DNA of 64,000 nt, taken from Minisyncoccota bacterium. Lineage in GTDB: Bacteria > Patescibacteriota > Minisyncoccia > Phycocordibacterales > JABAAK01. A model generated the notes under the pieces. The model made no database searches. It worked only from the letters and a program-made list of their open reading frames with translations, and was not told where the DNA came from. Shown here piece after piece: positions 7,616 to 59,894 of this stretch; the first letter of the stretch is position 1, and every line of letters starts with the position of its first letter. Location: contig OZ244939.1 in the NCBI GenBank assembly GCA_965222235.1, positions 400,107 to 464,106 of the forward strand, given 5' to 3'. A program made the translations under genes and the position numbers.

Positions 7616-7663
7616 ACATCATCATGACGCCGGCACCTGTCATTGGTTGGAGAAGACATAGAG

Positions 7664-7737
7664 TGGGCGATGCAGGGCTCGAACCTGCGGCCTTCTGGGT
7701 GTAAACCAGACGCTCTAGCCAACTGAGCTAATCGCCC
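7664..7737 (-). tRNA. tRNA-Val (TAC).
   Basis: The reverse complement reads gggcgattagctcagttggctagagcgtctggttTACacccagaaggccgcaggttcgagccctgcatcgccca. The acceptor, D, anticodon and T arms all pair. Confidence 0.85.
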
Positions 7738-8810: not shown

Positions 8811-9777
8811 ACAGTTTTATCACAATCAACAAATAGAGAAGGATATAAAAAATCCCTTCCCAGATATAAATCTTATTCGACAGGCTTGATACAATAAAAA
8901 GGACGGTCACGCCGATCAGCGCGGGGAGGCCGACAGAGAGCGTGGTGGCATTGAGGGTCAGGTTCGAAAACAGCGCGGGGAGGCCGATCACAAAAAGAAT
9001 ATTAAAGGTGTTTGAGCCGATGATATTGCCGATGACGAGCTCTATCTCCTTGCGCAGTGCCGCCTGCACCGAAACAACAAGTTCAGGAAGCGAGGTGCCG
9101 AGTGCCAGCGCGGTAATGGCAACAAGACCCTCGGGAATAGAAAACAGCGAGGCGATCATCTGTGTTGATATAATCGTGGTGTGCGCCGCCAAGGCGACTA
9201 CGACAACGGCCAGGATAAATACGCCGAGATGCTTGGGAACAAACGACAGGCTTTTCAACCGTTCTTCCGATGTGAGCGGATAAGTCCTCTGATCCTTGGA
9301 CAGAAAGATGTAGGCGAGATAGCAGATAAAGCCGAACAGAAGAAATACCCCCTCGTACATATGCACAACGCCGTCAAACACAATAAATATGAACATGAGC
9401 GTCACCGCAACGATGAGCGGCAATTCAATATCAACAAGATTCTTTGTGATAACGAGCCGGCGCACAATGAGGGTGACAATACCCAGTATTAATAATATAT
9501 TTGCAATGTTTGAGCCGATAACTTGGGCAACGGGAATGTCAACCACACCATTCCAGACGGAGAACAGCGCTATGGTCGCCTCAGGAAGCGAGGTGCCGAA
9601 CGCAACAATAACCGCACCGACCACGAACGGGCTGATATCAAGCGCCAGCCCCAATTGTCCCGCACTGCGCAAAAAATAATTCGTCGCGGTGATAAGTAGA
9701 CCGAGCGAGGCAAAAAACAGGAGAAATGGAATGATGAAATCCATATTAATACACCAAAAGAACGGCGAAATGAGCAA
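8797..9777 (-). CDS. Ca2+/cation antiporter (CaCA / YrbG-like Na+/Ca2+ exchanger).
   Basis: It carries two alpha-repeats, GTSLPEATIALFSVWNG and GTSLPELVVSVQAA, with GSNIANILLILG. Confidence 0.8.
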   Translation of the reverse strand: MLISPFFWCINMDFIIPFLLFFASLGLLITATNYFLRSAGQLGLALDISPFVVGAVIVAFGTSLPEATIALFSVWNGVVDIPVAQVIGSNIANILLILGIVTLIVRRLVITKNLVDIELPLIVAVTLMFIFIVFDGVVHMYEGVFLLFGFICYLAYIFLSKDQRTYPLTSEERLKSLSFVPKHLGVFILAVVVVALAAHTTIISTQMIASLFSIPEGLVAITALALGTSLPELVVSVQAALRKEIELVIGNIIGSNTFNILFVIGLPALFSNLTLNATTLSVGLPALIGVTVLFIVSSLSNKIYIWEGIFYILLYLLIVIKLFGIL

Positions 9778-9925
9778 GAAGATTAATAAGGCTGTAGGTA
9801 AGGAAAAACGAAACGAAGAAAAAATTAACGCACGAGAGTATATTCATATGGATAGTATACTCTGAAATCCTATACGACAGAAAAGTGCGCGGGAAAAATG
9901 GGGAAACCGGCGCGGCGGCGAACAG

Positions 9926-12492: not shown

Positions 12493-12566
12493 GGGTGATT
12501 AGCTCAGTCGGCTAGAGCGCTTCCTTGACGTGGAAGAGGTCACAGGTTCGAGCCCTGTATCGCCCA
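12493..12566 (+). tRNA. tRNA-Val (GAC).
   Basis: gggtgattagctcagtcggctagagcgcttccttGACgtggaagaggtcacaggttcgagccctgtatcgccca; all four arms pair. Confidence 0.85.
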
Positions 12567-12613
12567 CACAAGACATACATGTCACACTGCGTGTGTTACT
12601 ATTAATATTGTTT

Positions 12614-16752: not shown

Positions 16753-17900
16753 CCCAAGTTCAAACAAATAATAGAACACCTGTCATATACCAAGTAATAC
16801 TGGAGACATATGACAAAAGCAAAGAAAAAGAGACGGGAACCGTTCACCCGTCTGAATATTCATGAACGGAGTAGTATTGAAGTGAGATACTGTGCTGACA
16901 AGAGATCCCTGCGGGAGATAGCGAAAGAGTTGGGCAGGTCACCGGGAACCATACATCGGGAAATAGGGGGAAAACCGAGAAAAGGAGTCGGACGGTACTG
17001 CGCGCTGAGGGCACAGCGGGAAGCAGAGAAAAGGATACACACCCGGGGGAGGAAAGGAGTGCTGACCGACAGAGCACTCCTTGGGTATGTGCGGGAGAAG
17101 ATGGAGGAAGGATGGTCTCCCGAGCAGGTGAGTATTCGTCTTCCCCGGGAGTTTCCGGAGGACACAACCATGCGGGTATCTCATGAGACGATATATACCT
17201 TCATATATGCGCAGATTCACCAAAGCGGACACGGTATCGTGAAACCGGGGTATCTAGACTTACGGTCTCTTCTGCCGAGAAGAAGGAAGAGACGCATACG
17301 GCAAGGAGTGAGAAACACACAGAAAACAGAACGAAGAGCGGCCTTGCCCTCCATAGAGGAGAGACCGGGGATAGAGGGGGTAATCGGTCATTGGGAAGGT
17401 GACACCATGCTCTCAAGGAAAAGCAGCGTTAGGGTAAAGAGTATGAATGAAAAGATGACCGGTCTGGCATTCTTTGAGAAAACAAAAGACGGTACCGCTG
17501 AGTCCTGTGACGCGGCAATCATCAGACGAATGCGCGCTGTCCCTCCGAGATACCGCAAGACCCTCACCCAGGACAGAGGGGCGGAGAATAGGGGGTACCG
17601 CACCGTTGAAAAAGAACTCAGTCTCTCCTGCTACTTCGCCCATCCGTACTGCTCTCATGAAAGAGGATCAAACGAGAACACCAACGGATTGTTCCGTCGG
17701 TGTTTCCCGAAGGGGACTGACTTTGACAAAAGCAATGACCGTGACATTGCCAAGGTTGAGTACCTATTGAATACCCGTCCCAGGAAACGCCTTACTGGTC
17801 TGACCCCTTACGAGGTATTCTACCGCATGACCGGTGTCAATCTCCAGAGGATGGCATATTACAAACTGACAGGTGTTCAATTAGAAGTTTGAATGTAGGC
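16753..17900 (+). mobile_element. IS30-family insertion sequence, copy 1 (1148 bp).
   Basis: It is 100% identical to 29937-31084. Imperfect terminal IRs: TTCAAAC..TAAT(A/T)GAACACCTGTCA. It ends 1 bp from the metG stop codon. Confidence 0.85.
16810..17892 (+). CDS. IS30-family DDE transposase.
   Basis: 360 aa with an N-terminal HTH, the HWEGDTM motif typical of IS30 transposases, and a DDE core. It is identical to 29994-31076. Confidence 0.9.
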   Translation: MTKAKKKRREPFTRLNIHERSSIEVRYCADKRSLREIAKELGRSPGTIHREIGGKPRKGVGRYCALRAQREAEKRIHTRGRKGVLTDRALLGYVREKMEEGWSPEQVSIRLPREFPEDTTMRVSHETIYTFIYAQIHQSGHGIVKPGYLDLRSLLPRRRKRRIRQGVRNTQKTERRAALPSIEERPGIEGVIGHWEGDTMLSRKSSVRVKSMNEKMTGLAFFEKTKDGTAESCDAAIIRRMRAVPPRYRKTLTQDRGAENRGYRTVEKELSLSCYFAHPYCSHERGSNENTNGLFRRCFPKGTDFDKSNDRDIAKVEYLLNTRPRKRLTGLTPYEVFYRMTGVNLQRMAYYKLTGVQLEV

Positions 17901-23414: not shown

Positions 23415-23487
23415 CCGCCCATAGCTCAGTTGGTAGAGCAACGGCCTTTTAAGCCGGGGGTCCCAGGTTCGAGCCCTGGTGGGCGGA
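23415..23487 (+). tRNA. tRNA-Lys (TTT).
   Basis: ccgcccatagctcagttggtagagcaacggccttTTTaagccgggggtcccaggttcgagccctggtgggcgga. Acceptor ccgccca/tgggcgg, T-arm ccaggttcgagccctgg. The first anticodon-stem pair is mismatched and the 5-prime end is an unusual C1. Confidence 0.7.
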
Positions 23488-24966
23488 CTTTCCAGTACAA
23501 GCAAAGACACATTCACTATCGCTCGTGTGGCTGTCTTGGTCCGCGCGCCCGCAGGGCGCGCGGTAGAGGGTTTTCCACGCGCCGCGGGGCGCAAAGGTCA
23601 CACCGGTGTCGGCGAGTCGGCGGTTCAAGCCAACCTCTTTGAAAAAATCCGCCAAATCGGCAGGGTCGGTGCTATCAGTAACATTTCGCATTGCAGTTGC
23701 TTGCTCAATCACCAAAAGTGCCGGTTCAAGCCACGAATCATCATCGCCCGAGACACTCCGCAGTTTCTCCTTGATATCCATCTTTTTACCAAGTAGGATA
23801 TTTTTCTTGGCAATGTATTCTTCACGGGTGATATCACCAGAAAGAGACATATCAAGAAGATGGTCCATCTGCCCCTCAAACGCCCGCAAATCAGCGCGGA
23901 GTGTCTCGGTGCGACTTACTCCCGCCTGAGCGTCTGCATTGTACAAATCGTAAAGTTCATCTGAAATTCCACCAGCTTCGGCGGGAGTAAGGGAAACTTT
24001 TTGTAGTGCTGAGCGAACCTCCTCGTCAATTCTCTCACTGCGAACATATTTACCCGCACACTTCCCTTTTTTCTTAGTGCAGTGATAGTAGGTATGCCCT
24101 TTTTGAATTGATGAGGTGATGGAACAGCCACAATGCGCGCAGACAAGCATCTGGCGGAACGGATACCGCGCCGGGTCATGCTGCCGCACTTCCCGTCCCC
24201 GCTGTTCCATAATCGCTCGGCACTGATCAAAAAGTTTCTTGGTGATAAGTGGCGTATGCGCACCCTCGTGGGTTTCGCCGCCCCACGCTACCAAACCGTA
24301 ATATATCGGATTGTTAAGTATCCAGTGAACATTGCTCGCCGGAGTAAGATTGCCACGCCTGTTTTTAAATCTGAGAGACCGAAAGGTGAACTTACCGGTG
24401 GCATATTTTTCAAAAAGCGAAACCACGAGGGGTGCATACTCGGGGTCGGGGTCTATAGTATTCGTGTTGCGGTTATTTATATACCCGAAAGGTGCTCGTG
24501 ACGGGTGGATACCCCGCCGCGCCTTATTCCTCATACCACGGCGAACATTCTCGCTGAGGTTGTCTACATAGAGTTTGCTCTGACCGAATGCGAGGGTGAG
24601 GCAGAAAATACCGTGTGGTGTATTTTCAAAAGTGTAAGTCGGAAAACGCAGAGCAGCACCGCGTTGCTCCACCAATTCAACCAGTTTTGCGCCGTCCGTC
24701 ATATTGCGGGCAAGTCGGTCCGGATGCCAGGATAAAATGCCTTCCGCCTCACCCAGGGCGATGCGACCGAGCATCGCCTCAAAAACTTTTCTCCCGGGTT
24801 GCTTGGCGGATTGTTTCTCCGTCAAAACCTCAGTCACACTGACACCATTCTTGCGAGCGAAAGCGCGCAACTCTGCAATCTGATCGGGTATACTCTGCAC
24901 CTGTTTGTCTCTGTCATCAGTGCTTTTGCGAGCATATATAAAAAGTTTTTGCAAGCGTTCGGTCAT
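23449..24966 (-). CDS. Large serine recombinase (resolvase-type catalytic domain, recombinase domain, zinc ribbon).
   Basis: Trimmed to MTERLQKLFIYARKSTDDRDKQVQSIPDQ (catalytic Ser in YARKST). The zinc ribbon is CAHCGCSIT...YYHCTKK...C. The ORF 3-prime end runs 39 bp into tRNA-Lys on the antisense strand. Confidence 0.85.
   Translation of the reverse strand: MTERLQKLFIYARKSTDDRDKQVQSIPDQIAELRAFARKNGVSVTEVLTEKQSAKQPGRKVFEAMLGRIALGEAEGILSWHPDRLARNMTDGAKLVELVEQRGAALRFPTYTFENTPHGIFCLTLAFGQSKLYVDNLSENVRRGMRNKARRGIHPSRAPFGYINNRNTNTIDPDPEYAPLVVSLFEKYATGKFTFRSLRFKNRRGNLTPASNVHWILNNPIYYGLVAWGGETHEGAHTPLITKKLFDQCRAIMEQRGREVRQHDPARYPFRQMLVCAHCGCSITSSIQKGHTYYHCTKKKGKCAGKYVRSERIDEEVRSALQKVSLTPAEAGGISDELYDLYNADAQAGVSRTETLRADLRAFEGQMDHLLDMSLSGDITREEYIAKKNILLGKKMDIKEKLRSVSGDDDSWLEPALLVIEQATAMRNVTDSTDPADLADFFKEVGLNRRLADTGVTFAPRGAWKTLYRAPCGRADQDSHTSDSECVFACTGKSAHQGSNLGPPA
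23488..23629. repeat. 142-bp perfect inverted repeat, left copy. It encodes the last ~49 codons of the recombinase and contains the palindromes ccgcgcgcccgcagggcgcgcgg and gacaccggtgtc.
   Basis: The reverse complement of 25058-25199 is identical by eye. Confidence 0.85.
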
Positions 24967-25057
24967 AGTAAACGAATTGTACCATACCGACCCCGAACAA
25001 AATAAAGTACAAAGCACCGCCCTGCCAAAATAAAAAGTTTTTTAAAAAGTGGATGGT

Positions 25058-25476
25058 CTTGAACCGCCGACTCGCCGACACCGGTGTGACCTTTGCGCCC
25101 CGCGGCGCGTGGAAAACCCTCTACCGCGCGCCCTGCGGGCGCGCGGACCAAGACAGCCACACGAGCGATAGTGAATGTGTCTTTGCTTGTACTGGAAAGT
25201 CCTCTGAACAAGTAGCACTTGAACTCAAAAAACATTTTACCGAAGACACCTCGCACGCTCCACCCGCCCCGTAACTTTAATCCCAAAAGTGCCGCCAGAC
25301 AATCGCTCCGCTTACTACGGGCTCATGCTCGCAGGCTCACACCAGCCCTCCGTGCGCTCCGCTCCCGCGCCAATCACGCCGGCAGATTCTTTTTCAATTC
25401 AGCCCGCCGCCCAACCCCGCGTGCTCGCCGTTGCACCGTGTCGGGTCGGATATGGGAGTGGACGGGTGGTTTCTGA
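25058..25476. repeat. Right inverted copy of the recombinase 3-prime cassette (25058-25199) plus a 277-bp downstream segment (25200-25476). The downstream segment recurs inverted at 31401-31676.
   Basis: The plus-strand ORF 25053-25274 encodes the same C-terminal peptide as the recombinase. The ORFs 25219-25476 and 31403-31657 encode identical 85-aa stretches. Confidence 0.8.
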
Positions 25477-25514
25477 GTGCACAATAAAGACACGACAGCA
25501 CGCGAACAAACAGC

Positions 25515-25620
25515 AAAAGGATCTGCCGGCGTGATGGGGCGGGAGAACTATATGCAATCCGCCATCTTTCCTGCTTGCAAATGCTTGCGGAAAAGGCGGA
25601 TTTCCTTTATCCGACACAGG
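25515..25620 (+). repeat. Roughly 105-bp direct repeat R1 (partner at 26145-26250) with an internal imperfect hairpin and a GCTTGC-N5-GCTTGC direct repeat.
   Basis: The two copies align at about 85% identity. Confidence 0.7.
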
Positions 25621-25647
25621 GTGTCACAAGATGTACAATGGTTTTAT

Positions 25648-26142
25648 ATGACACAAAACAGTAACGGGTCAGACAAGGAAAATCAGGAAAATGCCCGAAA
25701 TAATTATTTGGAGGCAGGAAAGAGCGCAAATCAATTGCTAATTCCCGTGTTGATTGCTGTGCTTGGTCCTACCATCGCATCTCCAGATCTTTTATACCCG
25801 GCCGCACTTATTCTTTTTCTTTCTATAATATCTCTAATTATTCATAAAATGAGACAGATGTGTTTCTTTATGGATGAAAAAAACGGCGGAAAACAATATG
25901 AAGAAAGAGAGAGATTTATCAAAAACATTCCTTGCTTTTTGTTTAGTTTTTATCTGCTCGTCATATTGACTTTTGTATTTCTGTCATATACCATCCTTAC
26001 TATGAATGAAGATCAGAAAGATTTCAAGCCGGAAAGGAGAAATTCTCCGACTCACGAAAGGGATTTTAAACCAAACAAATCGGCACCTAATACCACACCA
26101 CCTACCCCAAGTCCTCAACCCAAGCCGAAAGAAAGTCAATAA
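25648..26142 (+). CDS. Small membrane protein (2-3 TM helices) with a Pro/Thr-rich tail.
   Basis: Trimmed to MTQNSNGSDKENQ. It has hydrophobic helices and AT-rich codon usage typical of the island. Confidence 0.4.
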   Translation: MTQNSNGSDKENQENARNNYLEAGKSANQLLIPVLIAVLGPTIASPDLLYPAALILFLSIISLIIHKMRQMCFFMDEKNGGKQYEERERFIKNIPCFLFSFYLLVILTFVFLSYTILTMNEDQKDFKPERRNSPTHERDFKPNKSAPNTTPPTPSPQPKPKESQ

Positions 26143-26144
26143 GG

Positions 26145-26250
26145 GGAAAAGAATCTGCTGGTGTGATAGCAAGGGAGAACTATGCGTAATCCGCCATCTT
26201 TCCCGCTTGCAGACGCTTGCGGAAAGGGCAGATTTCCTTGTCCTGCTTGA
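26145..26250 (+). repeat. Direct repeat R2, the partner of R1.
   Basis: See R1. Confidence 0.7.
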
Positions 26251-26312
26251 TTTTATATTTATATATGTGAATAACTAAAATTGAAAGATTTTTTACTAGT
26301 ATTATGATAGTA

Positions 26313-27256
26313 ATGAGTGAGAAACATAAGGTTGTTTCGTTGTTTTCTGGTTGTGGGGGTCTTGATTTAGGTATTTTGGGAGGATTCACGGTATTCAAGA
26401 AAAAATACCAAAAACGAAAATTTGATATTGTCTGGGCAAATGATTTTGACAAGAATGCTTGTGAAACATTTAAAAAAATATAGGAGATCACATTGTTTGT
26501 GGGGATATAGCTAAACTTCTGCAAAATAAAAAAGAATTTTTAAAATTTGACAATATAGATGTGGTGATAGGCGGTTTTCCATGCCAAGATTTTAGTATCG
26601 CAGGAAAAAGAAAGGGAACACAAACAAAAAGAGGTAAACTATATAAAAGTTTTATTGAGGTTGTTGAATTATTACAACCAAAAATTTTTTTAGCCGAGAA
26701 TGTGAAAGGGATTTTATCTATAAAAAGCGGTTCTGTGATTAAAAAAATTATATCTGATTTTGAAAAAATCGGTTACAAGGTCGAGTATAAGTTGTTTCAT
26801 GTCGCTGATTTCGGAATTCCCCAAAATAGGGAGAGGGTTTTAATGGTCGGAGTTAAAAACGGAGCTGGAAATTTTATTTTTCCAAAACCAAAAACTAAAA
26901 AGAGGCTCTCAGTTGGTCAAGTAATACAAGATTTAGAACACTTACCGGAAGGTGCTATTCACAATCACTTTTGGAGTAAAGCAAGAAAGAATAGTGGACA
27001 GGGAAATACTCGTATTAATAAAAATAAAATTGCTCCGACAATGCGCGCCGAGCATCACGGAAATATAGAATACCATTGGAATAAGAGGAGGAGGTTGTCC
27101 GCAAGAGAGGCTGCAAGGATTCAATCGTTCCCTGATAACTTTATTTTTTACCCATCAACTTCCCAAGCATACAGGCAAATTGGAAACGCTGTTCCACCAG
27201 TGATGGGTTGGCATATGGCGAAAGCGATGGAGAATTTTTTTGAGAGGTCTCTATGA
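26313..27256 (+). pseudogene. DNA (cytosine-5)-methyltransferase (Dcm-type) interrupted by a -1 frameshift in an A7 tract at 26471-26477.
   Basis: The N-terminal ORF MSEKHKVVSLFSGCGGLDLG carries motif I and stops at TAG at 26478-26480. Motif IV GGFPCQDFS, motif VI ENV and motif X QIGNAVPP continue in the +1 frame (track ORF 26561-27256). One extra A restores a single ORF of about 314 aa. Confidence 0.75.
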
Positions 27257-27921
27257 TTTATGCGACAGAAAAGAACGCAACAGAAAAAGATTTTCTCTCC
27301 CTACTTGAAGAATCAAAAAACCTTCTTTTAAAAAATATAGCCACTAACAAAAATTATCAACCATTAGATTTTGAAACCTTTGTTTATGAGACGATGCGCA
27401 ATGTGGCAAAAGAAACAGTATTTGAGGGAACTATTGAACGAACTGGAAAATTTGGCTTTCCTGATGTTTTGGCAAATAGATACTTTGGGGTTGAAGTAAA
27501 GATGACAAAACAAGATAAGTGGACATCAATTGGAAACAGCATATTTGAAACATCCAGAGTTGATGATGTGGAAAGAATATTTATTCTCTTTGGAAAATTT
27601 GGCGGTAATTTTGATGCGCGTTATAAGGCATATCAAGATTGTTTACCATCAATTAAAGTGACACACTCCCCCAGATATGTTATTGACATGGAATTATCGG
27701 TCAACGAATCAATATTTGAAAAAATAGGAACTGATTATGAATCTTTCAGAAAAGATGAAAACAAGGTTCATTTAATTAAGACATATTACAAAAAGCAATT
27801 AAAAGATGGAGAGGAATTATGGTGGATGGATGAATCTCAAGAAAAAAGTGTTGCGCCAATTATTCGCTCATTTCAAAATCTTGAAGAAAAAGAAAAGAGG
27901 GTTTTGTTGTTGAGAGTGTGA
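27253..27921 (+). CDS. Candidate type II restriction endonuclease (PD-(D/E)xK).
   Basis: FGFPDVLANRYFGVEVKMTK gives D..E-x-K. The start overlaps the methyltransferase stop (ATGA). It has the island's low GC. Confidence 0.45.
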   Translation: MIYATEKNATEKDFLSLLEESKNLLLKNIATNKNYQPLDFETFVYETMRNVAKETVFEGTIERTGKFGFPDVLANRYFGVEVKMTKQDKWTSIGNSIFETSRVDDVERIFILFGKFGGNFDARYKAYQDCLPSIKVTHSPRYVIDMELSVNESIFEKIGTDYESFRKDENKVHLIKTYYKKQLKDGEELWWMDESQEKSVAPIIRSFQNLEEKEKRVLLLRV

Positions 27922-28055
27922 TTTTATTTCCAGAAATTTTTGGCAGTAGCAGATTAAAATTTGAACGGGCGGCAATTTATCTGGTCACTGAATACAATAC
28001 TGTTTGCTCTAACCTGAGAGATATTTTTACTGCGGGCGGGTAAGAGGATGTTAAT

Positions 28056-28319
28056 ATGGCAAAGGAAAGATATTGTGTTCCACATATTTACTCTGAAATG
28101 CATAAGAGGGCGAAAATAATAGAAGAAAGAATAAAAGAAATGAATAGTGAAACTCTTTTATATTATTGGCGCATTGGTCATCTAAGTAAGGATAGGGTAT
28201 CTCAATGGAAACTCCTTTTAGAAAAAAATACAAAGTCATCAATTTCCTCCGAGCGGATTAAAGATAAACCGCAAAAGATATCAATAACAGATATTTTTGA
28301 AAGTGGTTTAAATATTTAA
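28056..28319 (+). CDS. Hypothetical 87-aa protein.
   Basis: ORF between the REase candidate and vsr; no recognisable family. Confidence 0.3.
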   Translation: MAKERYCVPHIYSEMHKRAKIIEERIKEMNSETLLYYWRIGHLSKDRVSQWKLLLEKNTKSSISSERIKDKPQKISITDIFESGLNI

Positions 28320-28321
28320 AT

Positions 28322-28750
28322 ATGGCGGATAAATATACGAAAGAACAGAGATACATTATGATGTCGTCTGTTAAAAGTAGAAATAACAAAAGCACAGAAC
28401 TTGTTTTTATCTCTTTGCTCCGCACAAATAAAATAACAGGATGGCGAAGACATTATCCGATAGAGGGAACGCCTGATTTTGTTTTTCCAAAAGAAAAGAT
28501 CGCAGTATTCATTGATGGTTGTTTTTGGCATAAGTGTCCGAAGTGTTACAGAAGGCCGAAATCAAATAAAGCGTATTGGGACCAAAAAGTGGAAGACAAT
28601 CAAAGAAGAGACGCAGCAAAGAGAAGGTCCTTGCGCAAACAGGGGTGGCATGTTGTTCGCATCTGGGAACATGAATTAAGCGGGAATAACAGATCTATAA
28701 TTAAAAGGCTTCAGAAAATATTTCCGGCACATTATGATTCTATCGCTTGA
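28322..28750 (+). CDS. vsr: Very-short-patch repair endonuclease.
   Basis: It has FIDGCFWHKCPKCY and TPDFVFPKEKIAVF, the Vsr catalytic and Zn motifs. 142 aa. Confidence 0.85.
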   Translation: MADKYTKEQRYIMMSSVKSRNNKSTELVFISLLRTNKITGWRRHYPIEGTPDFVFPKEKIAVFIDGCFWHKCPKCYRRPKSNKAYWDQKVEDNQRRDAAKRRSLRKQGWHVVRIWEHELSGNNRSIIKRLQKIFPAHYDSIA

Positions 28751-29883
28751 TCATTAAAAATGCGCAGCAAATCTTTTATTCCTTTTGCAATCAAACCTTC
28801 ATCAACAGATTTTTCTTCCTCCGGGTGAGCGAACTCATGTCGTAACTTTGTGACATATGTTATATCATTCCCTGAAGCATCTTTTTCATCAGCGAGCAGT
28901 GGCTTACCTTCAGTATTATTCTTACCCGCCAAACGCTCTGAATCAAATTTGTCATATGAATTAATACCGCTCTTAATTTTAAAATGTTCGTACAACTCAA
29001 GGAAGTAAGATTCACTCAGCTGATTAAACACAAAATAATTTATCTCCGAATGAGACCTATACCCTAACACGGACCAAGAATTATCCATATGTTTTAGTGT
29101 GGTGGACTTGGTGTTCTGATCACGGGAAACCTCGTATATTTTATCATCTCTGTTCAACCTCACAAAATCCGGATCATGTGTTGTTATCGCCACTTTCACA
29201 TCAACACCGCTTCCATCTTCTTTTTTGAGCAGTTTCTTAATCATCGTGTTCAGGCTCTTTTTCCACTCCGGGTGCAGATACGCTTCTGGCTCTTCTATAA
29301 GTAGTAGTATTTTTTTGTTACCACCACTGGCGTAAATTTTTTTGTAGTATAAAATAAACGCTATAGACATTAATCTCTGAGAACCCTGCCCTATCGAATC
29401 TAAGTCAATCTCATTATCCTTCTCACGATATTGGTCAAGCGCTTTCACTCCAATTAATTTTCTCACATCATCAGGACCAAAATCAGAACCCATAGATATA
29501 ATGACCTTTTTATCCTCAACACCGCTGTCCGATAAAATTTTGTTTATCTCGTCTTCGGCTTTCTTTTTCTCCCCACTTTTATCAAACTTGCTGATTAAAT
29601 CCGACAAAATAGTTTCATCCACAATCTCATTCAATATCGGGACAACAGTTTTTGAAAATTCGCTTCCTTTTTGAGATGTTGAACATTCAGTCCTCGGATC
29701 AATTTGATCTGACCTGATATAAATAACCTCACACTCTGGGTCAACTTCTTTTTTGTAGTTTTCATGAATATGACACAAAATATTTGATTTCCCTGCATTA
29801 TTTTTTCCAGCAAAAACAGTATAATCAGCGAGTTCAAACTCAATTTTGTCAGTTATGCTTTTGTAGTTCTCTATTGAAATCAT
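28732..29883 (-). CDS. AAA_21/ABC-type ATPase of the OLD / AbiEii / PARIS-AriA / Septu-PtuA class, with no partner gene.
   Basis: It has the Walker A FAGKNNAGKSN, a Q-loop/signature-like SIGQGSQRLMSIAF, the Walker B LLLIEEPEAYLHP and an H-loop ITTHDP. 383 aa. Its start is 54 bp from the end of IS30 copy 2. Confidence 0.7.
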   Translation of the reverse strand: MISIENYKSITDKIEFELADYTVFAGKNNAGKSNILCHIHENYKKEVDPECEVIYIRSDQIDPRTECSTSQKGSEFSKTVVPILNEIVDETILSDLISKFDKSGEKKKAEDEINKILSDSGVEDKKVIISMGSDFGPDDVRKLIGVKALDQYREKDNEIDLDSIGQGSQRLMSIAFILYYKKIYASGGNKKILLLIEEPEAYLHPEWKKSLNTMIKKLLKKEDGSGVDVKVAITTHDPDFVRLNRDDKIYEVSRDQNTKSTTLKHMDNSWSVLGYRSHSEINYFVFNQLSESYFLELYEHFKIKSGINSYDKFDSERLAGKNNTEGKPLLADEKDASGNDITYVTKLRHEFAHPEEEKSVDEGLIAKGIKDLLRIFNDQAIES

Positions 29884-29936
29884 AACTGCATTCTGCCAAA
29901 ATACACCACATTGAGCAAGATGACAATATGATGCGC

Positions 29937-31084
29937 CCCAAGTTCAAACAAATAATAGAACACCTGTCATATACCAAGTAATACTGGAGACATATGACAA
30001 AAGCAAAGAAAAAGAGACGGGAACCGTTCACCCGTCTGAATATTCATGAACGGAGTAGTATTGAAGTGAGATACTGTGCTGACAAGAGATCCCTGCGGGA
30101 GATAGCGAAAGAGTTGGGCAGGTCACCGGGAACCATACATCGGGAAATAGGGGGAAAACCGAGAAAAGGAGTCGGACGGTACTGCGCGCTGAGGGCACAG
30201 CGGGAAGCAGAGAAAAGGATACACACCCGGGGGAGGAAAGGAGTGCTGACCGACAGAGCACTCCTTGGGTATGTGCGGGAGAAGATGGAGGAAGGATGGT
30301 CTCCCGAGCAGGTGAGTATTCGTCTTCCCCGGGAGTTTCCGGAGGACACAACCATGCGGGTATCTCATGAGACGATATATACCTTCATATATGCGCAGAT
30401 TCACCAAAGCGGACACGGTATCGTGAAACCGGGGTATCTAGACTTACGGTCTCTTCTGCCGAGAAGAAGGAAGAGACGCATACGGCAAGGAGTGAGAAAC
30501 ACACAGAAAACAGAACGAAGAGCGGCCTTGCCCTCCATAGAGGAGAGACCGGGGATAGAGGGGGTAATCGGTCATTGGGAAGGTGACACCATGCTCTCAA
30601 GGAAAAGCAGCGTTAGGGTAAAGAGTATGAATGAAAAGATGACCGGTCTGGCATTCTTTGAGAAAACAAAAGACGGTACCGCTGAGTCCTGTGACGCGGC
30701 AATCATCAGACGAATGCGCGCTGTCCCTCCGAGATACCGCAAGACCCTCACCCAGGACAGAGGGGCGGAGAATAGGGGGTACCGCACCGTTGAAAAAGAA
30801 CTCAGTCTCTCCTGCTACTTCGCCCATCCGTACTGCTCTCATGAAAGAGGATCAAACGAGAACACCAACGGATTGTTCCGTCGGTGTTTCCCGAAGGGGA
30901 CTGACTTTGACAAAAGCAATGACCGTGACATTGCCAAGGTTGAGTACCTATTGAATACCCGTCCCAGGAAACGCCTTACTGGTCTGACCCCTTACGAGGT
31001 ATTCTACCGCATGACCGGTGTCAATCTCCAGAGGATGGCATATTACAAACTGACAGGTGTTCAATTAGAAGTTTGAATGTAGGC
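29937..31084 (+). mobile_element. IS30-family insertion sequence, copy 2, identical to copy 1.
   Basis: It aligns base-for-base with 16753-17900 at an offset of 13184. Confidence 0.85.
29994..31076 (+). CDS. IS30-family DDE transposase, copy 2.
   Basis: Its 360-aa sequence is identical to copy 1. Confidence 0.9.
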   Translation: MTKAKKKRREPFTRLNIHERSSIEVRYCADKRSLREIAKELGRSPGTIHREIGGKPRKGVGRYCALRAQREAEKRIHTRGRKGVLTDRALLGYVREKMEEGWSPEQVSIRLPREFPEDTTMRVSHETIYTFIYAQIHQSGHGIVKPGYLDLRSLLPRRRKRRIRQGVRNTQKTERRAALPSIEERPGIEGVIGHWEGDTMLSRKSSVRVKSMNEKMTGLAFFEKTKDGTAESCDAAIIRRMRAVPPRYRKTLTQDRGAENRGYRTVEKELSLSCYFAHPYCSHERGSNENTNGLFRRCFPKGTDFDKSNDRDIAKVEYLLNTRPRKRLTGLTPYEVFYRMTGVNLQRMAYYKLTGVQLEV

Positions 31085-31173
31085 GCCACATGCGACAGAC
31101 GGATTAAAAAACACTAAGAATATTAAATATCGCTGATTAAATTGCACAGGCATTTCCGGCTCCGATGCTTTCC

Positions 31174-31349
31174 GCAGAGCGAATGCGGAGTGGAAAGAGG
31201 AGGAGTGGGAAAAGCGAGCGGAACGGAGCCGAGCCGAGCAGGAATGAAAAAACAGGAAAGGCTTGCGCATGCAATGCCTTCCTGTTTTTGAACGGGCAAG
31301 GTGAGAGTCCGTGAAGTGAGCGATGCCGTTCCCTATTCCGCGCCTTTCA
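31174..31349 (+). other. Conserved non-coding module, copy 2 (purine-rich tract, terminator-like hairpin, GAACGGGCAAGGTG box).
   Basis: Its first 121 nt align with 12022-12142 with no net indels. The hairpin aaaaacaggaaaggc...gccttcctgttttt has a different stem sequence but the same position and T-run. Confidence 0.5.
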
Positions 31350-31400
31350 TCGCCAAAGATTCTTTTACCTTTCCCCCGTGCGAGCCGTTGTCTATGAACA

Positions 31401-31800
31401 AAGAAACCACCCGTCCACTCCCATATCCGACCCGACACGGTGCAACGGCGAGCACGCGGGGTTGGGCGGCGGGCTGAATTGAAAAAGAATCTGCCGGCGT
31501 GATTGGCGCGGGAGCGGAGCGCACGGAGGGCTGGTGTGAGCCTGCGAGCATGAGCCCGTAGTAAGCGGAGCGATTGTCTGGCGGCACTTTTGGGATTAAA
31601 GTTACGGGGCGGGTGGAGCGTGCGAGGTGTCTTCGGTAAAATGTTTTTTGAGTTCAAGTGCTACTTGTTCAGAGGACTTTCCAGTACAAGCAAAGACACA
31701 CTCACTATTGCTCGTGTGACTTCCTTCTGCAACACGCCCTTCCAACCTGTGGTAGAGGGTTTTCCATGGCGCAACGCAGGACAAAGCAACGACATCGCTG
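31401..31800. repeat. Third copy (B) of the recombinase 3-prime cassette plus its downstream segment. It is in the orientation of the tRNA-Lys-proximal copy. 31401-31676 is near-identical to the reverse complement of 25200-25476; 31677 to about 31800 is a diverged recombinase 3-prime end.
   Basis: The minus-strand ORF 31602-31817 ends ...ECVFACTGKSSEQVALELKKHFTEDTSHAPPAP, as does 25053-25274. Confidence 0.75.
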
Positions 31801-31864: not shown

Positions 31865-32512
31865 ATGACTGATATTTTTATAGACGAAAGTGGAAATTTA
31901 GGGAAAGGAGAAAGATTTTTTATCATCTCGGTAATACAATTCAATTCCGACAACGATTATAAAAAATGGAAAAGAGTCGCAAGGAAAATTATAAAAAATA
32001 AAAAACACCTAAAAGAAATTAAATCTTCTTCAATGGATTACACTTTGAAGAGGGAGGTCTTGGAGCAGGCTAGAAAGCAAGATATAAAATTCAAAGTTTG
32101 GCTTGGTATTATTGATACAGATCACGACTATTACAAACAGAAATTTATAATGCAAGACAACTCTAAAGAGCTTGCTTTTAACTATACTTTAAAAAAGTTA
32201 TTCAAAGAGACAATTGCAAAAGAAATTCAAAAAGAAGTGGCCATAGTATATGTTGATCAGCGAAACACCAAAACAGGATCAAGATATTCGTTGGGTGATT
32301 ATTTAAACGCAGAAATTCTTCACGACCCGGATGTCCCACTACAAAAGATTATTATTTATTACCAAGATTCAAAGAATAATTATGGCATCCAACTATCAGA
32401 TCTGATTGCAAATATTACTTACACCAAACTTGAGCACAATAAATCAAAATATCTTTTTAAAAAATATGTGAGTCCAAGATTATCAGGTAAATGCAAATAC
32501 CCAGAGTGTTGA
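31865..32512 (+). CDS. DUF3800-family protein.
   Basis: The N-terminal MTDIFIDESGNLGKG matches the DUF3800 signature (I-F/Y-I-D-E-S-G). 215 aa. AT-rich island gene. Confidence 0.55.
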   Translation: MTDIFIDESGNLGKGERFFIISVIQFNSDNDYKKWKRVARKIIKNKKHLKEIKSSSMDYTLKREVLEQARKQDIKFKVWLGIIDTDHDYYKQKFIMQDNSKELAFNYTLKKLFKETIAKEIQKEVAIVYVDQRNTKTGSRYSLGDYLNAEILHDPDVPLQKIIIYYQDSKNNYGIQLSDLIANITYTKLEHNKSKYLFKKYVSPRLSGKCKYPEC

Positions 32513-32734
32513 GCTTGTGTATAAAACGAAGAGAGCCCCTGACGGGCTCCTTCTAAGCAACTTATACTTCGGTGCCGTATAACGACACTTAACCGGCATT
32601 ATGCTTGGGTCTCCATATAAGATTTATGCCTACAACCAGTATATACATCTTCAACCCACTTTTCCAGGTCCTTGTGAAAAACACAAAATTGGTTGACATA
32701 TAAAGAATATTTTATACCACCCCCCTTCCCCAAA

Positions 32735-32792: not shown

Positions 32793-33389
32793 TCACTGGA
32801 TGATCCCGAGCAGGGAGCGGAGCACAAAAGGAGCCTCTTTCATCCCGTCATCCCCGCTGGTGAAATGACCCATATTTTTCATAATGACAATCTCCGAACC
32901 GAGTTTTTCCCTAAAATCATCCTGATTATCAAGCGGAACATCCGGGTCGTTATCGGAAAATATGGCGACACTCTTCGGTAGGTGGGAGCTCGCCTTCCTG
33001 AAATCGGGGGGCGAATCAAGCCAGTGTCTTTTGGTTTCCAAATCATCATCGGTATCATTATCGGATTCCGAGAGTCTTTTAAAGAAGCCGGCGACAAAAA
33101 CCGCGCCCCCGATTTTTATATCCCCATCTTCTGGTAGTCCTTCAAGGTAACGCACAATGGTTTGGCAACCGAGACTGTGCCCGACAAAATAGGTATTTTC
33201 ATTGACGGTGCCGACTGCATTTGATACTTCGGAAACCCAGTTGTGTATCCGTGGTTTTTCAGCCTCCGGGAGTTGTGGGATGTGAACCTCAAATTCCCTT
33301 GCTTCAAGTTCTCCTTTCAGCCATTGAAACCAATCTTCTTCCGGGTGGCCATCCCAGCCGTGCAGGATATAAACTCTTTTTTGGTTCAT
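32793..33389 (-). CDS. Alpha/beta-hydrolase of the YdeN/RBBP9 serine-hydrolase family.
   Basis: Trimmed to MNQKRVYILHGW. It has the nucleophile elbow GHSLG, and Asp/His are present later. About 198 aa. Confidence 0.65.
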   Translation of the reverse strand: MNQKRVYILHGWDGHPEEDWFQWLKGELEAREFEVHIPQLPEAEKPRIHNWVSEVSNAVGTVNENTYFVGHSLGCQTIVRYLEGLPEDGDIKIGGAVFVAGFFKRLSESDNDTDDDLETKRHWLDSPPDFRKASSHLPKSVAIFSDNDPDVPLDNQDDFREKLGSEIVIMKNMGHFTSGDDGMKEAPFVLRSLLGIIQ

Positions 33390-33588
33390 GTATAAATGAT
33401 AGCAGTTGTGTCGGTAATATTCTATCAATTCTCAATTCAAATTCATATACCATCATATACCATTAAAGTATAACACGATACAGTGCCGCATCCCCGCGGT
33501 GGTTTATCAAACCACAAAATTATGGTAGAGTACACGCTAGGAAACCCATCGGGGCTTTCGTGTACTTTTTCACAGAGAGGAGAGGAAC

Positions 33589-56342: not shown

Positions 56343-59300
56343 TTACAGCGGGGTTATAAAGGACTCAACGACCTCACGGTACCTCCTCTCCACCTTTTTC
56401 TGGAAAGAATCCCGGTATCGGCGCTCCGCCTCGGTCGCACTGAGCGCTCCCCAGTGTTCCGTTGAACTTTGCGGATCGCCTTCACCGACGAATATTTCAC
56501 CGAACCGGCGGTATTTTTCAGAATCTCTCTGTCGCTGTCCGTAAGAGCTGATGTCGGTGGAGAAACTGGTTAAGAGTGTCTGCGCTGATGCTGTGGGGAG
56601 ACGCACCAATTTTGACTCATGTCCGAAAACATAGAGGGCATATATGATTTTTTCAGGACTCTTCGGCAGGTTGCGGACGCTTGTGTTGACAAAGTTTGTA
56701 AACTCATCAAGCGTACAGTCCATCTCAACATATCTTCCGCTGATGACACCGCCGTCTCCGGAGTGTACCTCAACCGCGCAGGCACCCCTGAGCAGATTAA
56801 TGTGTTCCGATCCGGCGGTGTAAATATGAACGCTTCTATTGCGGAGATTTTCTATCGTAGCATCCCGCACCACCGCCCACTTGGAGACCCCTCTGGCCAG
56901 CCGCGAAGAAAACCGTTCATCCTGAAGTATGGCGTTTCTGTAGTTCTGTTTTGCCACAGATGTGCTGTCCCCGCGATATTCCTCCTCTTCACCGACGAGT
57001 TGTATATACGCCGCCATCGTCGCTTCATAAATTTCCCGCAGTAGTCGTGCAGTCTCGGCAGAGTCGGATTCAAGCGAATTTTTCATTCGGGTTGTCGCCC
57101 CGTTCAGCGCCGCCCGGTCATCCGGATAAATATATGCGGTCACATTCCTTCGCCGTCTGTATCCGCACCCACCAGCGTCATTGTAATAATCACAGAACGT
57201 CAGGGTTCTCGGCCTCTGAATGGCGCGCAGAACGTTGGTAATAGTGTTTCCGTTCGGATATGCCTCAAGAAACGGATAATCCGCTGCCCTGAACCCGCCC
57301 GAGTATGTTTTGTAGTACACCCCATCTTCGCCGGGCTGTCGGTATTCGATCGGAGGCGTGTTCTCGGTATGAAGATTGGTGTTGATATATGACAGGAGTT
57401 TGATACTGTCCCGTATGCGAATTTCAGCGGATAATATATTAATGTATGAACCGGCGGTTGAAGAAGTAAGGAGTGTGTCAACCCACCAGTTACCACCCCG
57501 GGAATATGTGGGAATACCTTCACTGACCCGATGAATCTCAGTTCGTGATGATATCCAACTGCTGCTGAGGCCTTCTTTCAGCACCCTCTTGACAAGACCG
57601 ACCACAGTTGCGTCCACAACGGCCTGGATAATCTCCCCGAGACCGTCCGCATCGTGGACGGATTGAATTTGTAAATCAATAAAACTCTCCTTGCGCCGTG
57701 CTATGGTAGTGGCACCGCTTTTTACACTGACGGGACACACAATTTCCGCGCCGTCGTCATCGTGACACTCTTCAGTGTATGAAGCGATTGCCGTCGGATC
57801 TTCACCACTGCTCAATAGTTCCCGCTGCGACGGCTCTTCGCCGATACTCCTTTCAAGAATTTCCCGCTGCAGTCGGTCTTGCTCGCTCAACTGGGTTAAC
57901 TCATTGCCGTCTTCTACAATTGAACGAATCTCCCGTGTTATCGTATCGGACACGCGGTCTAATTTTTCATTTGCGTCTATTTGTGACACGCCGGCGAGAT
58001 CAAAAGGATTGATGGTGATAGCACCGTTGCCGGGTCTGACACCCCTGCGGCCCCGCAAGGCTGGATCAAGCTGGTTTGATCCTACAAAAGCCTGTTGTTC
58101 AATAACATACGGACCCTTTCTCGCGACAATATGAACACGGGCATTCTTTTTGGTTCTCCCGTGTATTGTTCCTTTTGTGTCCGTGTTGCTCCGAATATTT
58201 ACACGCTTAACCTGAGAAGTCTCAGTGCCGTCGTCAAGTTGCTCTGTTATAGTGACCTCCCACACACCGACAACCGCGTTATTGGTGACGGCATTTCCTC
58301 CCCCACTTCCGCTGGCAAGAGCGAAATCAACTGTTGCCGAATAGAAGGCGGCTTCGGAACCGAGGATAATCGGATCATCTTCTATAAAATCAATAGGATT
58401 ACCCACAAAGTCTACAGGATTGTCTATAAAATCATCAATATTATTTATAAAATCACTCAGTGTACAGCGTGGCGGTTCAAGACCTATCCGACGATACCGT
58501 AACTGTAAGAGACTTGAAATATCAATTTTAATTCCGTCTATATCACACAAAAACCCCAACCCACCACTTTCCAGTGCCCGACCGACCGACCTGTCGGCAA
58601 AGTCTTTCCAGAATTGGGACGGATTGTCAATAAAGTACGGCTGGCCGTGAAAACCGGTCAATGCCCAATCTATATACGAGGAAGCCAAATCAAGAGCGGC
58701 CTGTTTGGCGACTCCATATGCAATAACATCAATCCCACAGTCCTTGAGCGTATCTGAGCCGTCAATGTCATTGACCGCATGGGGAAGGAGTGTGGTCAGG
58801 AGTGTCCCCGCAATACAGGCGGCAGTGTTGCCGACAACGGCAAGCGCCAAACTTTGCAGTATGCTTCCCAAATCAAAATCCTCATCCTCAAATTCCCCTT
58901 CGGGAATGACAACAGTCCCAGGAGGACCTTGCGGTATGAGAGGGGGTGGCGGGTCAGGATCGTTAGGATCCGGCGGGGTAATAGGGCCCGACGGTATAGT
59001 AGGGCCCGGAGGAATATCAATGTTAATGGCGGGCGGTGTTATAAAAGGAGTCGGCCGCACTGTCGGGGGGGTGATGCCGGGAAATGAAGGTCTTCTCGGA
59101 GTGACAAAGGGATTGTTGCCGCTGCCCAGGTACAGGACACTTCCGGGATTTTGCGACACGTCGCCGAACGGGCGTATCACCGTATTATACGCCCCCGTTA
59201 TTCCCCGAAACCTGACCGGATCACTGGCGGGCCCCTGGGGCCCGTATAGGGCGACGAGATCACGGTACGCAGAGTCAATCTCCCCCCGCGTCGCCCCGGG

Positions 59301-59894
59301 ATTGAGCCCTAGTGTGGTGTAGGCATTGTCAATCAATGCGTTATACGCCCCCGTTATTCCCCGGAACCTGACCGGATCACTGGCGGCCCCCTGGGGCCCG
59401 TATAGGGCGACGAGATCACGGTACGCAGAGTCAATCTCCCCCCGCGTCGCCCCGGGATTGAGCCCTAGTGTGGTGTAGGCATTGTCAATCAATGCGTTAT
59501 ACGCCCCCGTTATTCCCCGGAACCTGACCGGATCACTGGCGGCCCCCTGGGGCCCGTATAGGGCGACGAGATCACGGTACGCAGAGTCAATCTCCCCCCG
59601 CGTCGCCCCGGGATTGAGCCCCAGTGTGGTGTAGGCCCGCCGAATCACATCGTCATCCCGAACCACATCGTCGTCTGTGACCGGCAGCTCTCTGAGGATA
59701 AGAGAATCCCTGTCTCTCGCACGAGGATCGTTGGGGTTAATGATTTCGGCAACATCCTTTTTTTCCAGTGTTGCAATATCTTCCTTCTCGCCGTAAAAAA
59801 ATAAAAAGAAAACAATAAGGGCGAGAATGAGAACAACAGAACCGACAATGATGGAAATCAACAAAGCCCGACCCGCATTATGCAAGTTTTTCAT
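56343..59894 (-). CDS. Giant (1183 aa) membrane-anchored surface protein with three tandem 53-aa repeats that resemble a degenerate J-domain.
   Basis: N-terminal TM helix. The repeat AYTTLGLNPGATRGEIDSAYRDLVALYGPQGAASDPVRFRGITGAYNALIDN occurs 3 times. A proline-rich linker follows. Confidence 0.6.
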   Translation of the reverse strand: MKNLHNAGRALLISIIVGSVVLILALIVFFLFFYGEKEDIATLEKKDVAEIINPNDPRARDRDSLILRELPVTDDDVVRDDDVIRRAYTTLGLNPGATRGEIDSAYRDLVALYGPQGAASDPVRFRGITGAYNALIDNAYTTLGLNPGATRGEIDSAYRDLVALYGPQGAASDPVRFRGITGAYNALIDNAYTTLGLNPGATRGEIDSAYRDLVALYGPQGPASDPVRFRGITGAYNTVIRPFGDVSQNPGSVLYLGSGNNPFVTPRRPSFPGITPPTVRPTPFITPPAINIDIPPGPTIPSGPITPPDPNDPDPPPPLIPQGPPGTVVIPEGEFEDEDFDLGSILQSLALAVVGNTAACIAGTLLTTLLPHAVNDIDGSDTLKDCGIDVIAYGVAKQAALDLASSYIDWALTGFHGQPYFIDNPSQFWKDFADRSVGRALESGGLGFLCDIDGIKIDISSLLQLRYRRIGLEPPRCTLSDFINNIDDFIDNPVDFVGNPIDFIEDDPIILGSEAAFYSATVDFALASGSGGGNAVTNNAVVGVWEVTITEQLDDGTETSQVKRVNIRSNTDTKGTIHGRTKKNARVHIVARKGPYVIEQQAFVGSNQLDPALRGRRGVRPGNGAITINPFDLAGVSQIDANEKLDRVSDTITREIRSIVEDGNELTQLSEQDRLQREILERSIGEEPSQRELLSSGEDPTAIASYTEECHDDDGAEIVCPVSVKSGATTIARRKESFIDLQIQSVHDADGLGEIIQAVVDATVVGLVKRVLKEGLSSSWISSRTEIHRVSEGIPTYSRGGNWWVDTLLTSSTAGSYINILSAEIRIRDSIKLLSYINTNLHTENTPPIEYRQPGEDGVYYKTYSGGFRAADYPFLEAYPNGNTITNVLRAIQRPRTLTFCDYYNDAGGCGYRRRRNVTAYIYPDDRAALNGATTRMKNSLESDSAETARLLREIYEATMAAYIQLVGEEEEYRGDSTSVAKQNYRNAILQDERFSSRLARGVSKWAVVRDATIENLRNRSVHIYTAGSEHINLLRGACAVEVHSGDGGVISGRYVEMDCTLDEFTNFVNTSVRNLPKSPEKIIYALYVFGHESKLVRLPTASAQTLLTSFSTDISSYGQRQRDSEKYRRFGEIFVGEGDPQSSTEHWGALSATEAERRYRDSFQKKVERRYREVVESFITPL
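59170..59645. repeat. Three tandem, near-identical 159-bp DNA repeats inside the giant gene.
   Basis: A unit of about 159 bp recurs at about 59175, 59339 and 59498. Confidence 0.8.

Follow-up and report, generated by a model that had tools for sequence, protein, structure and literature searches.

A 64,000-nucleotide (nt) stretch of a Minisyncoccota bacterium genome (contig OZ244939.1, positions 400,107 to 464,106 of the forward strand; hereafter the window) carries a gene for a 383-amino-acid (aa) protein, in which an OLD-type ABC ATPase is followed by a second, conserved C-terminal domain. With moderate confidence, and in large part by analogy with characterised proteins, we propose that this protein is a complete single-polypeptide sensor-effector, which would combine the OLD-type ATPase with a HEPN-like RNase and function as a stand-alone defence protein. 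A preliminary description of the same DNA had treated the gene as an orphan ATPase left over from a truncated two-gene defence system, and had overlooked the distinct conserved domain in the last ~120 residues. The gene and its parts are as follows.

28732-29883, minus strand: complete ATPase gene, 383 aa, ATG start (list of open reading frames (ORFs); aligned over its full length with 34 relatives, 340-400 aa)
29098-29883, minus strand: OLD-type ABC ATPase domain, residues 1-262 (Pfam, PADLOC, PDB 6p74, Foldseek, invariant residues)
28735-29097, minus strand: C-terminal helical domain, residues 263-383, a putative HEPN RNase
28825-28842, minus strand: Rx4H motif RHEFAH (R348...H353), predicted to be catalytic in the HEPN domain (translation; conservation)

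The ORF and the four ATPase motifs named in the preliminary description are present and translate as quoted: Walker A (AGKNNAGKSN, 29782-29811), the signature-like SIGQGSQRL (residues 163-171, containing GQGSQR), the Walker B/D-loop (LLLIEEPEAYLHP, 29269-29307) and the H-loop ITTHDP (residues 233-238, containing THD). In the alignment of 35 family members, G26, N28, N29, G31 and K32, G167 and R170, E197-E200, L203, H204 and P205, as well as T235, H236 and D237, are invariant. The protein matches AAA_15 (8.4e-25) and AAA_21 (6.3e-12) in Pfam, and the profile search against PADLOC that had been recommended earlier returned Old (1.6e-28) and AriA (6.2e-27) as best models, followed by NsnB, GajA and PtuA, all of which align to the ATPase part only. 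In addition, the class 2 OLD structure 6p74 in the PDB matches the ATPase domain at 2e-21, Foldseek matches of this domain comprise Rad50, GajA, the retron-Eco8 OLD protein and PtuA, and the NCBIfam scan gave a match to retron_eff_Eco8 (1.6e-13) and no model at or above its own cut-off. The earlier classification as an OLD/AriA/PtuA-like ABC ATPase is thus supported by the AAA_15, Old and AriA matches, the gene lies in a context of defence genes and mobile elements, and the ATPase is of OLD type (AAA_15/DUF2813) and not a RecF/RecN housekeeping protein.

Residues 263-383 are covered by no curated Pfam, NCBIfam or PADLOC model. R348 and H353 of the Rx4H motif are invariant across the 35 aligned family members, and in a set of 110 homologous C-terminal domains, which takes in larger relatives of 450-560 aa, the arginine is found in 108 and the histidine in all 110, so that no other positions of the domain are as conserved. 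The consensus of the motif in this set, R[NH]xI[HAG]H, is the common HEPN form. The AlphaFold2 model of the domain is confident, with a pLDDT (predicted score in the local distance difference test) of 84.5, and shows five helices and a small beta insert. When 42 C-terminal domains were compared singly with Pfam, three families matched more than one of them, all weakly: HEPN_RiboL-PSP in four members (best 4.5e-4), and HEPN_MAE_28990 and PUB in two members each. The weak PADLOC matches of the domain include Cas13a, Csx1 and CARF_HEPN, and the Pfam scan of the window protein revealed no TOPRIM match in this part. Taken on motif and sequence, the C-terminal domain is likely, with good confidence, a HEPN domain, and R348 and H353 would be its catalytic pair.

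Several observations weigh against this interpretation. A Foldseek comparison of the C-terminal domain with the PDB gave no significant match (best E-value 4), a sequence-profile search of the PDB with the same domain gave no match, no Pfam family reached its own threshold on this domain of the window protein, and no curated HEPN, PrrC or RloC model was matched by its sequence above threshold. The structure prediction was made from an alignment of only eight sequences (full-length model: pLDDT 75.9, predicted template-modelling score 0.79). The defence role is argued from context and analogy. Furthermore, a DUF3800 gene lies near the ATPase gene in 3 of the 35 family loci (the window, L001 and L026), a proximity that could reflect a functional link.

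The protein belongs to a small uncharacterised family that occurs mainly in candidate-phyla-radiation bacteria (Patescibacteria). A word-indexed search of 5.8 billion proteins recovered only four full-length relatives (35-57% identity, 377-409 aa), the closest of which, at 57% identity, is encoded at the locus L001. Scanning one genome per GTDB species added 34 further loci, 35 with the window, which encode proteins mostly of 340-400 aa. Nearly all of them are from Patescibacteria (Saccharibacteria, Paceibacterota, Staskawiczbacteria, Nomurabacteria and others), and one is from a Woesearchaeota chromosome. Exhaustive searching of 1.84 billion representatives with HMMER yielded ~75 clusters at E<=1e-30 with a patchy distribution, together with AAA_15 proteins of 450-560 aa that carry the same C-terminal domain. 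TOPRIM-bearing OLD proteins (500-700 aa) scored far lower and matched over the ATPase part only; the TOPRIM family PF20469 is carried by these longer relatives and is absent from the precomputed Pfam lists of family members. In the 35-sequence alignment the window protein spans the full length of the family. Searches of plasmids and phages gave weak partial matches only.

Two members of the family have unusual surroundings. The 2462-bp contig L007, binned as Actinomycetota, carries no genes beyond a family member and a Rep_1 gene for rolling-circle replication; possibly it is a very small plasmid with the ATPase-HEPN gene as its sole cargo, and its ends show no terminal overlap. On the chromosome OZ242164.1 of a Woesearchaeota (DPANN) archaeon (L024, 9295-14136), an RloB-like gene directly precedes the family member, and 1.5 kb downstream lies the gene of a second AAA_15 ATPase (494 aa).

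The genes next to family members are heterogeneous. The upstream neighbour is DUF2130 in six loci and DUF3800 in two, and RloB, Tsp45I, EcoO109I, M.EcoRI, a C5 methyltransferase, a Y-family polymerase, a serine recombinase and Rep_1 each occur once; downstream, DUF2779 is found in four loci and NUDIX in two, besides single cases of GmrSD-HNH, AbiV-HEPN and methyltransferases. Family members frequently, although not always, adjoin restriction-modification genes: C5 or N4/N6 DNA methyltransferases lie within 5 kb at 14 of the 35 loci, and Tsp45I, EcoO109I, M.EcoRI and GmrSD genes are direct neighbours at others. Among 63 immediate neighbours in family loci no DUF4435 protein was detected, and HNH matches were sporadic, the one characterised being the GmrSD-HNH protein. 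For the window itself, the preliminary description had noticed no nuclease-like partner gene on either side, and our scan of the flanking ORFs likewise found no TOPRIM, DUF4435, RloB or HNH partner gene, nor a UvrD-like helicase gene among the neighbours of the ATPase. The conclusion drawn from that absence is not supported: the 34 homologous loci without the insertion sequence (IS) also have no conserved partner gene, an outcome that the preliminary description had itself named as refuting its interpretation. In these relatives, where it had been suggested that the original upstream gene be sought, upstream genes vary and the ATPase stands without a conserved partner. In addition, the protein has a nuclease-like C-terminal domain of its own.

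The preliminary description had further attributed the supposed loss of a partner to an IS30 element, of which the end is indeed located exactly 53 bp upstream of the start codon.

29937-31084, plus strand: IS30-family IS, 1148 bp, transposase 29994-31076 (NCBIfam; identical second copy)
29884-29936, minus strand: retained native upstream sequence of 53 bp, separating the IS30 end from the start codon

The transposase scores 219 bits against the NCBIfam model transpos_IS30 (NF033563; cut-off 80), imperfect terminal inverted repeats are present at both copies of the element, and each copy is flanked by a 2-bp target duplication (GC at 29937-31084, TT at 16753-17900), all of which agree with the features that define the IS30 family, namely its transposase, terminal inverted repeats and target duplications of 2-3 bp. 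Because the 2-bp duplications match, the insertion was a simple one, and positions 29936 and 31087 were contiguous before it. The IS30 insertion deleted nothing, and the proposal that it removed or displaced a partner gene is contradicted by the same duplications; at most, upstream regulatory sequence was cut off. The IS might also supply a promoter, as the preliminary description proposed; within the native 53 bp there is a sigma-70-like TTGTCA-17-TATTTT (29926-29898), and such sites are no commoner here than in shuffled sequence. The second IS30 copy (16753-17900) lies in direct orientation 13.2 kb upstream, and its 100% identity points to a transposition not long ago within a small candidate-phyla-radiation genome.

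A role as defence RNase is established or predicted for ABC-HEPN fusions such as PrrC, RloC, APECO1_4465 and ERFG_01251, whose ATPase domain controls the HEPN domain and whose linkage to restriction-modification systems is frequent (PMC3710099). By analogy with these proteins we infer RNase activity, a defence role, a regulatory logic and a substrate for the protein in the window, whereas its domain architecture, the conservation of the motifs, the spread of the family, the diversity of neighbours and the simple IS insertion are direct observations. The HEPN domain would take the place of the TOPRIM domain of OLD and GajA or of the separate nuclease AriB or PtuB. The ATPase domain may dimerise in a nucleotide-dependent manner and hold the HEPN domains inactive, as in PrrC and RloC, the only ABC-ATPase-HEPN fusions to have been studied, until an infection-associated cue would allow two Rx4H motifs to build a metal-independent RNase site. 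This site could then cut tRNA or other RNA, so that translation would stop and infection would be aborted. OLD and PARIS effectors have recently been reported to be tRNases, and the joining of an OLD-type ATPase to a HEPN domain would fit those reports.

With PrrC, a protein of ~400 aa, and with RloC, the window protein shares an N-terminal ABC ATPase, a predicted C-terminal HEPN-like domain with an Rx4H motif (Rx4-6H in PrrC/RloC), a single-polypeptide sensor-effector logic, a similar overall size and a frequent linkage to restriction-modification genes. It differs in its ATPase, which is of OLD/AAA_15 type whereas that of PrrC/RloC is Rad50/SbcC-like (AAA_13, PF13166); the window protein has no AAA_13 match at E<=0.01, and no PrrC or RloC model is among the PADLOC matches listed for the whole protein (the best 25 of 120) or for the C-terminal domain. 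The neighbourhood differs as well, in that PrrC is embedded in a type Ic hsdMSR operon, whereas the window gene adjoins a type II Dcm/restriction endonuclease/Vsr module and other family members mostly have type II neighbours or none. The APECO1_4465 and ERFG_01251 ABC-HEPN families of Anantharaman et al. (2013), compared by their published description only, have the same architecture (PMC3710099).

By sequence, the closest ATPase domains are those of the OLD family (P2 Old, 6p74), GajA and the retron-Eco8 effector, which also share the defence-island context; unlike OLD and GajA, however, the window protein has no TOPRIM domain and ends after a 120-residue all-helical domain with the Rx4H motif. 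An AAA_15/AAA_21 ABC ATPase core is common to it and to PARIS AriA and Septu PtuA, for which the matches cover part of the ATPase only. In contrast to PARIS, no DUF4435-TOPRIM AriB gene is adjacent in the window or among the 63 immediate family neighbours; in contrast to Septu, the window has no adjacent HNH PtuB gene and none is conserved across the family; and in contrast to Gabija, of which the GajA models match the ATPase part only, there is neither a TOPRIM domain nor a GajB-like helicase neighbour.

Defence proteins with ABC ATPases usually consist of an ATPase and a TOPRIM or HNH nuclease, and PrrC/RloC is seen as a separate Rad50-like lineage. The present family points to a domain swap by which an OLD-type ATPase core, too, acquired a putative HEPN RNase. 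As no model covers the C-terminal domain, defence-finding tools would label the family as a partial Old/AriA ATPase only, and before concluding that an "orphan" AAA_15 ATPase has lost its partner it appears advisable to look for a short effector domain at its C-terminus. Patescibacteria are episymbionts with tiny genomes, and descriptions of their defence systems other than restriction-modification are, to our knowledge, few.

On the other side of the IS30 element lies a DUF3800 gene, followed by a conserved noncoding element; one arm of a pair of inverted repeats lies between IS30 and DUF3800.

31865-32512, plus strand: DUF3800 gene (Pfam DUF3800 2.4e-14; 52% identical to the L001 DUF3800)
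32513-32646, plus strand: conserved noncoding element of ~130 nt downstream of DUF3800, with a terminator-like hairpin ahead of a conserved core
25137-25481: left arm of a 345-nt inverted repeat, with an attP-like X/Y junction
31395-31739: right arm of the 345-nt inverted repeat, between IS30 and DUF3800

In the window the DUF3800 gene is divergent from the ATPase gene and 2 kb away from it, beyond IS30 and the right repeat arm. At L001, DUF3800 is located 266 bp upstream of the ATPase gene in the same direction, with a C5 methyltransferase gene after the ATPase gene, and at L026, where the ATPase is only ~25% identical, it is likewise upstream and co-directional. No additional copies were recovered with a local DUF3800 model made from two sequences, and Pfam then added L026; the upstream genes of L002 and L003 (207 aa and 166 aa), considered as candidates, are not DUF3800.

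The core of the ~130-nt element reads CTAAGC...TTCGGTGCCG..ACGACACTTAACCGGCA..GCTTAG. The element is common to three Patescibacteria genomes; it is ~80% identical to positions 9744-9862 and 7354-7483 of L001, and it has partial matches at L001 3255-3342 and also a match at 2559-2643 of L014, a related Paceibacterota genome. The spacer between DUF3800 and the ATPase gene in L001, which is ~80% identical to the window element, is more conserved than the adjacent genes, and copies in L001 also flank unrelated genes, one before SocA_Panacea and one after the EcoO109I restriction endonuclease. The element has a folding z-score of -2.58 relative to shuffled sequence and one stem with three covarying pairs; no Rfam match was found for it in the window or in L001, and an exact-pattern scan of metagenomes gave no match. 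One possibility is a new RNA associated with DUF3800, another an attC-like site at a cassette boundary. The position of the element next to unrelated genes in L001 suggests that it marks cassette boundaries, and the hairpin and repeated element between DUF3800 and the ATPase gene in L001 suggest that the two genes are separate cassettes. The core sequences CTAAGC/GCTTAG are unlike the canonical attC RYYYAAC/GTTRRRY.

Against these observations the alternatives to a self-contained ATPase-HEPN protein can be weighed. That the gene is the surviving half of a system like AriA/AriB, PtuA/PtuB or OLD, with its nuclease partner deleted or displaced by IS30, would agree with the PADLOC scores for AriA (6.2e-27), PtuA and GajA, with an IS only 53 bp from the start codon, and with the RloB-like gene directly upstream at L024. 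The matches to AriA, PtuA and GajA are, however, limited to the ATPase core, the intact 2-bp target duplication shows that there was no deletion, no TOPRIM, HNH or DUF4435 partner is conserved at the 34 loci without the IS, the protein is full length for its family and has its own conserved C-terminal domain, and the second AAA_15 ATPase of L024 could be the partner of RloB; we consider this explanation very unlikely. Alternatively, the C-terminal domain might be a non-catalytic helical sensor or interaction domain, through which the protein would modulate the neighbouring restriction-modification system or other nucleases. This appears unlikely, as conservation in the domain is highest at the arginine and histidine of Rx4H, which would be unusual if their role were purely structural, and as the variety of neighbours is too great for a single specific protein partner. 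The possibility that the protein is a housekeeping DNA repair ATPase similar to RecF, RecN or SMC, of which the preliminary description had named the RecF/RecN-like kind as an outcome that would refute its interpretation, can be practically discounted: a weak SMC_N match (1.7e-4; 21.5 bits, below the cut-off of 40) and a weak recF match (18.7 bits against 172) speak for it, but the gene lies in a low-GC (guanine-cytosine) island at a tRNA gene, and the family is small and patchy, with ~75 clusters among 1.84 billion representatives.

The DUF3800 protein, perhaps together with an RNA element, might also be the true partner, in which case an ancestral arrangement of DUF3800, element and ATPase, as in L001, would have been split in the window by rearrangement and by IS30. 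The co-directional upstream position in L001 and L026, the comparable identities to L001 of DUF3800 (52%) and of the ATPase (57%), and the ~80% conservation of the downstream element are consistent with this explanation. DUF3800 is, moreover, an effector in type VII retrons (PADLOC model DUF3800_VII), and DUF3800 genes are known to be associated with structured RNAs (PMC5737381). Nevertheless, the association is confined to 3 of 35 loci, the gaps between DUF3800 and the ATPase gene measure 238-266 bp and contain a terminator-like hairpin, the same element stands beside unrelated genes in L001, and no single inversion between the present repeats restores adjacency; for the 345-nt repeats, this was reasoned from their positions. 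We therefore regard a partnership as doubtful. DUF3800 is probably a separate cassette, and a functional link between it and the ATPase seems improbable. Equally improbable, in our estimation, is a three-part RNA-guided or RNA-regulated defence module of ATPase-HEPN protein, DUF3800 and the ~130-nt element, in which the element would be a sensor, antitoxin or regulator RNA. Such a module of candidate-phyla-radiation bacteria, if real, would explain what the RNA motifs associated with DUF3800, long a puzzle, are for, and rearrangement would then have split the module in the window.

The ATPase-HEPN gene is part of an integrated island, of which the tRNA-Lys gene and the recombinase gene (23415..25017) are the start.

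23415-23488, plus strand: tRNA-Lys (tRNA search)
23449-25017, minus strand: large serine recombinase gene (Resolvase, Recombinase and Zn_ribbon_recom domains), abutting tRNA-Lys
26304-27256, plus strand: C5 (Dcm-type) cytosine DNA methyltransferase, split by a frameshift (26304-26483, 26561-27256)
27253-28319, plus strand: type II restriction endonuclease in two frames (27253-27921, 28056-28319)
28322-28750, plus strand: intact Vsr very-short-patch repair endonuclease (Pfam Vsr 3.7e-17)

The GC profile gives 35% for the segment 25500-29936, which includes the ATPase gene, and the host genome has ~52% GC. The PolA protein of the window is most similar to Patescibacteria PolA (Kaiserbacteria, Parcubacteria, Paceibacterota), so that the host is a candidate-phyla-radiation bacterium; cross-phylum transfer or a spirochaete host, considered because of a faint TP_0781 domain match in L001, was ruled out on the same ground. 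The broken endonuclease matches the PADLOC model REase_II at 1.1e-34 over profile positions 33-208 of 340 only. Since an independent short-read contig (L084) has the same splits in the methyltransferase and the endonuclease, the decay of the Dcm/endonuclease module appears genuine. Vsr scores 109 bits against TIGR00632 (cut-off 97.85), and its 3' end overlaps that of the ATPase gene by 19 bp, in agreement with the convergent orientation reported earlier. Thus, a decayed restriction-modification module adjoins an intact putative abortive-infection gene.

The two 345-nt inverted repeats are 96% identical and bracket the low-GC cargo together with IS30 (25482-31394). A perfect inverted repeat of 145 nt (23485-23629 and 25058-25202) flanks the body of the serine recombinase gene, and as it includes the 3' coding end of this gene, either orientation keeps an intact recombinase ORF. 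The 3' end of tRNA-Lys and two attP-like X/Y junctions share the crossover-like tetranucleotide GGAC. The segment could be invertible or shuffled by the recombinase. The 221-aa ORF at 25477-26142, which matches no family, is flanked by direct repeats of 93 nt (25515-25607 and 26147-26239, 84% identity) that may represent another cassette boundary.

A window ORF on the minus strand (32793-33428), upstream of the ATPase gene on the same strand and beyond DUF3800, has no NCBIfam match; its sequence resembles a serine hydrolase of PF06821 type, the kind that at L034 (hydrolase gene at 399-956) is encoded immediately upstream of, and co-directionally with, the family member. That both loci have such a hydrolase neighbour is probably a coincidence. 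Elsewhere in the window, positions 59176-59643 consist of three tandem copies of a 156-nt unit with 92-100% identity, and a pair of tRNA-Val genes (7663-7737 and 12493-12567; anticodons TAC and GAC) forms a 79% inverted repeat inside a tRNA cluster.

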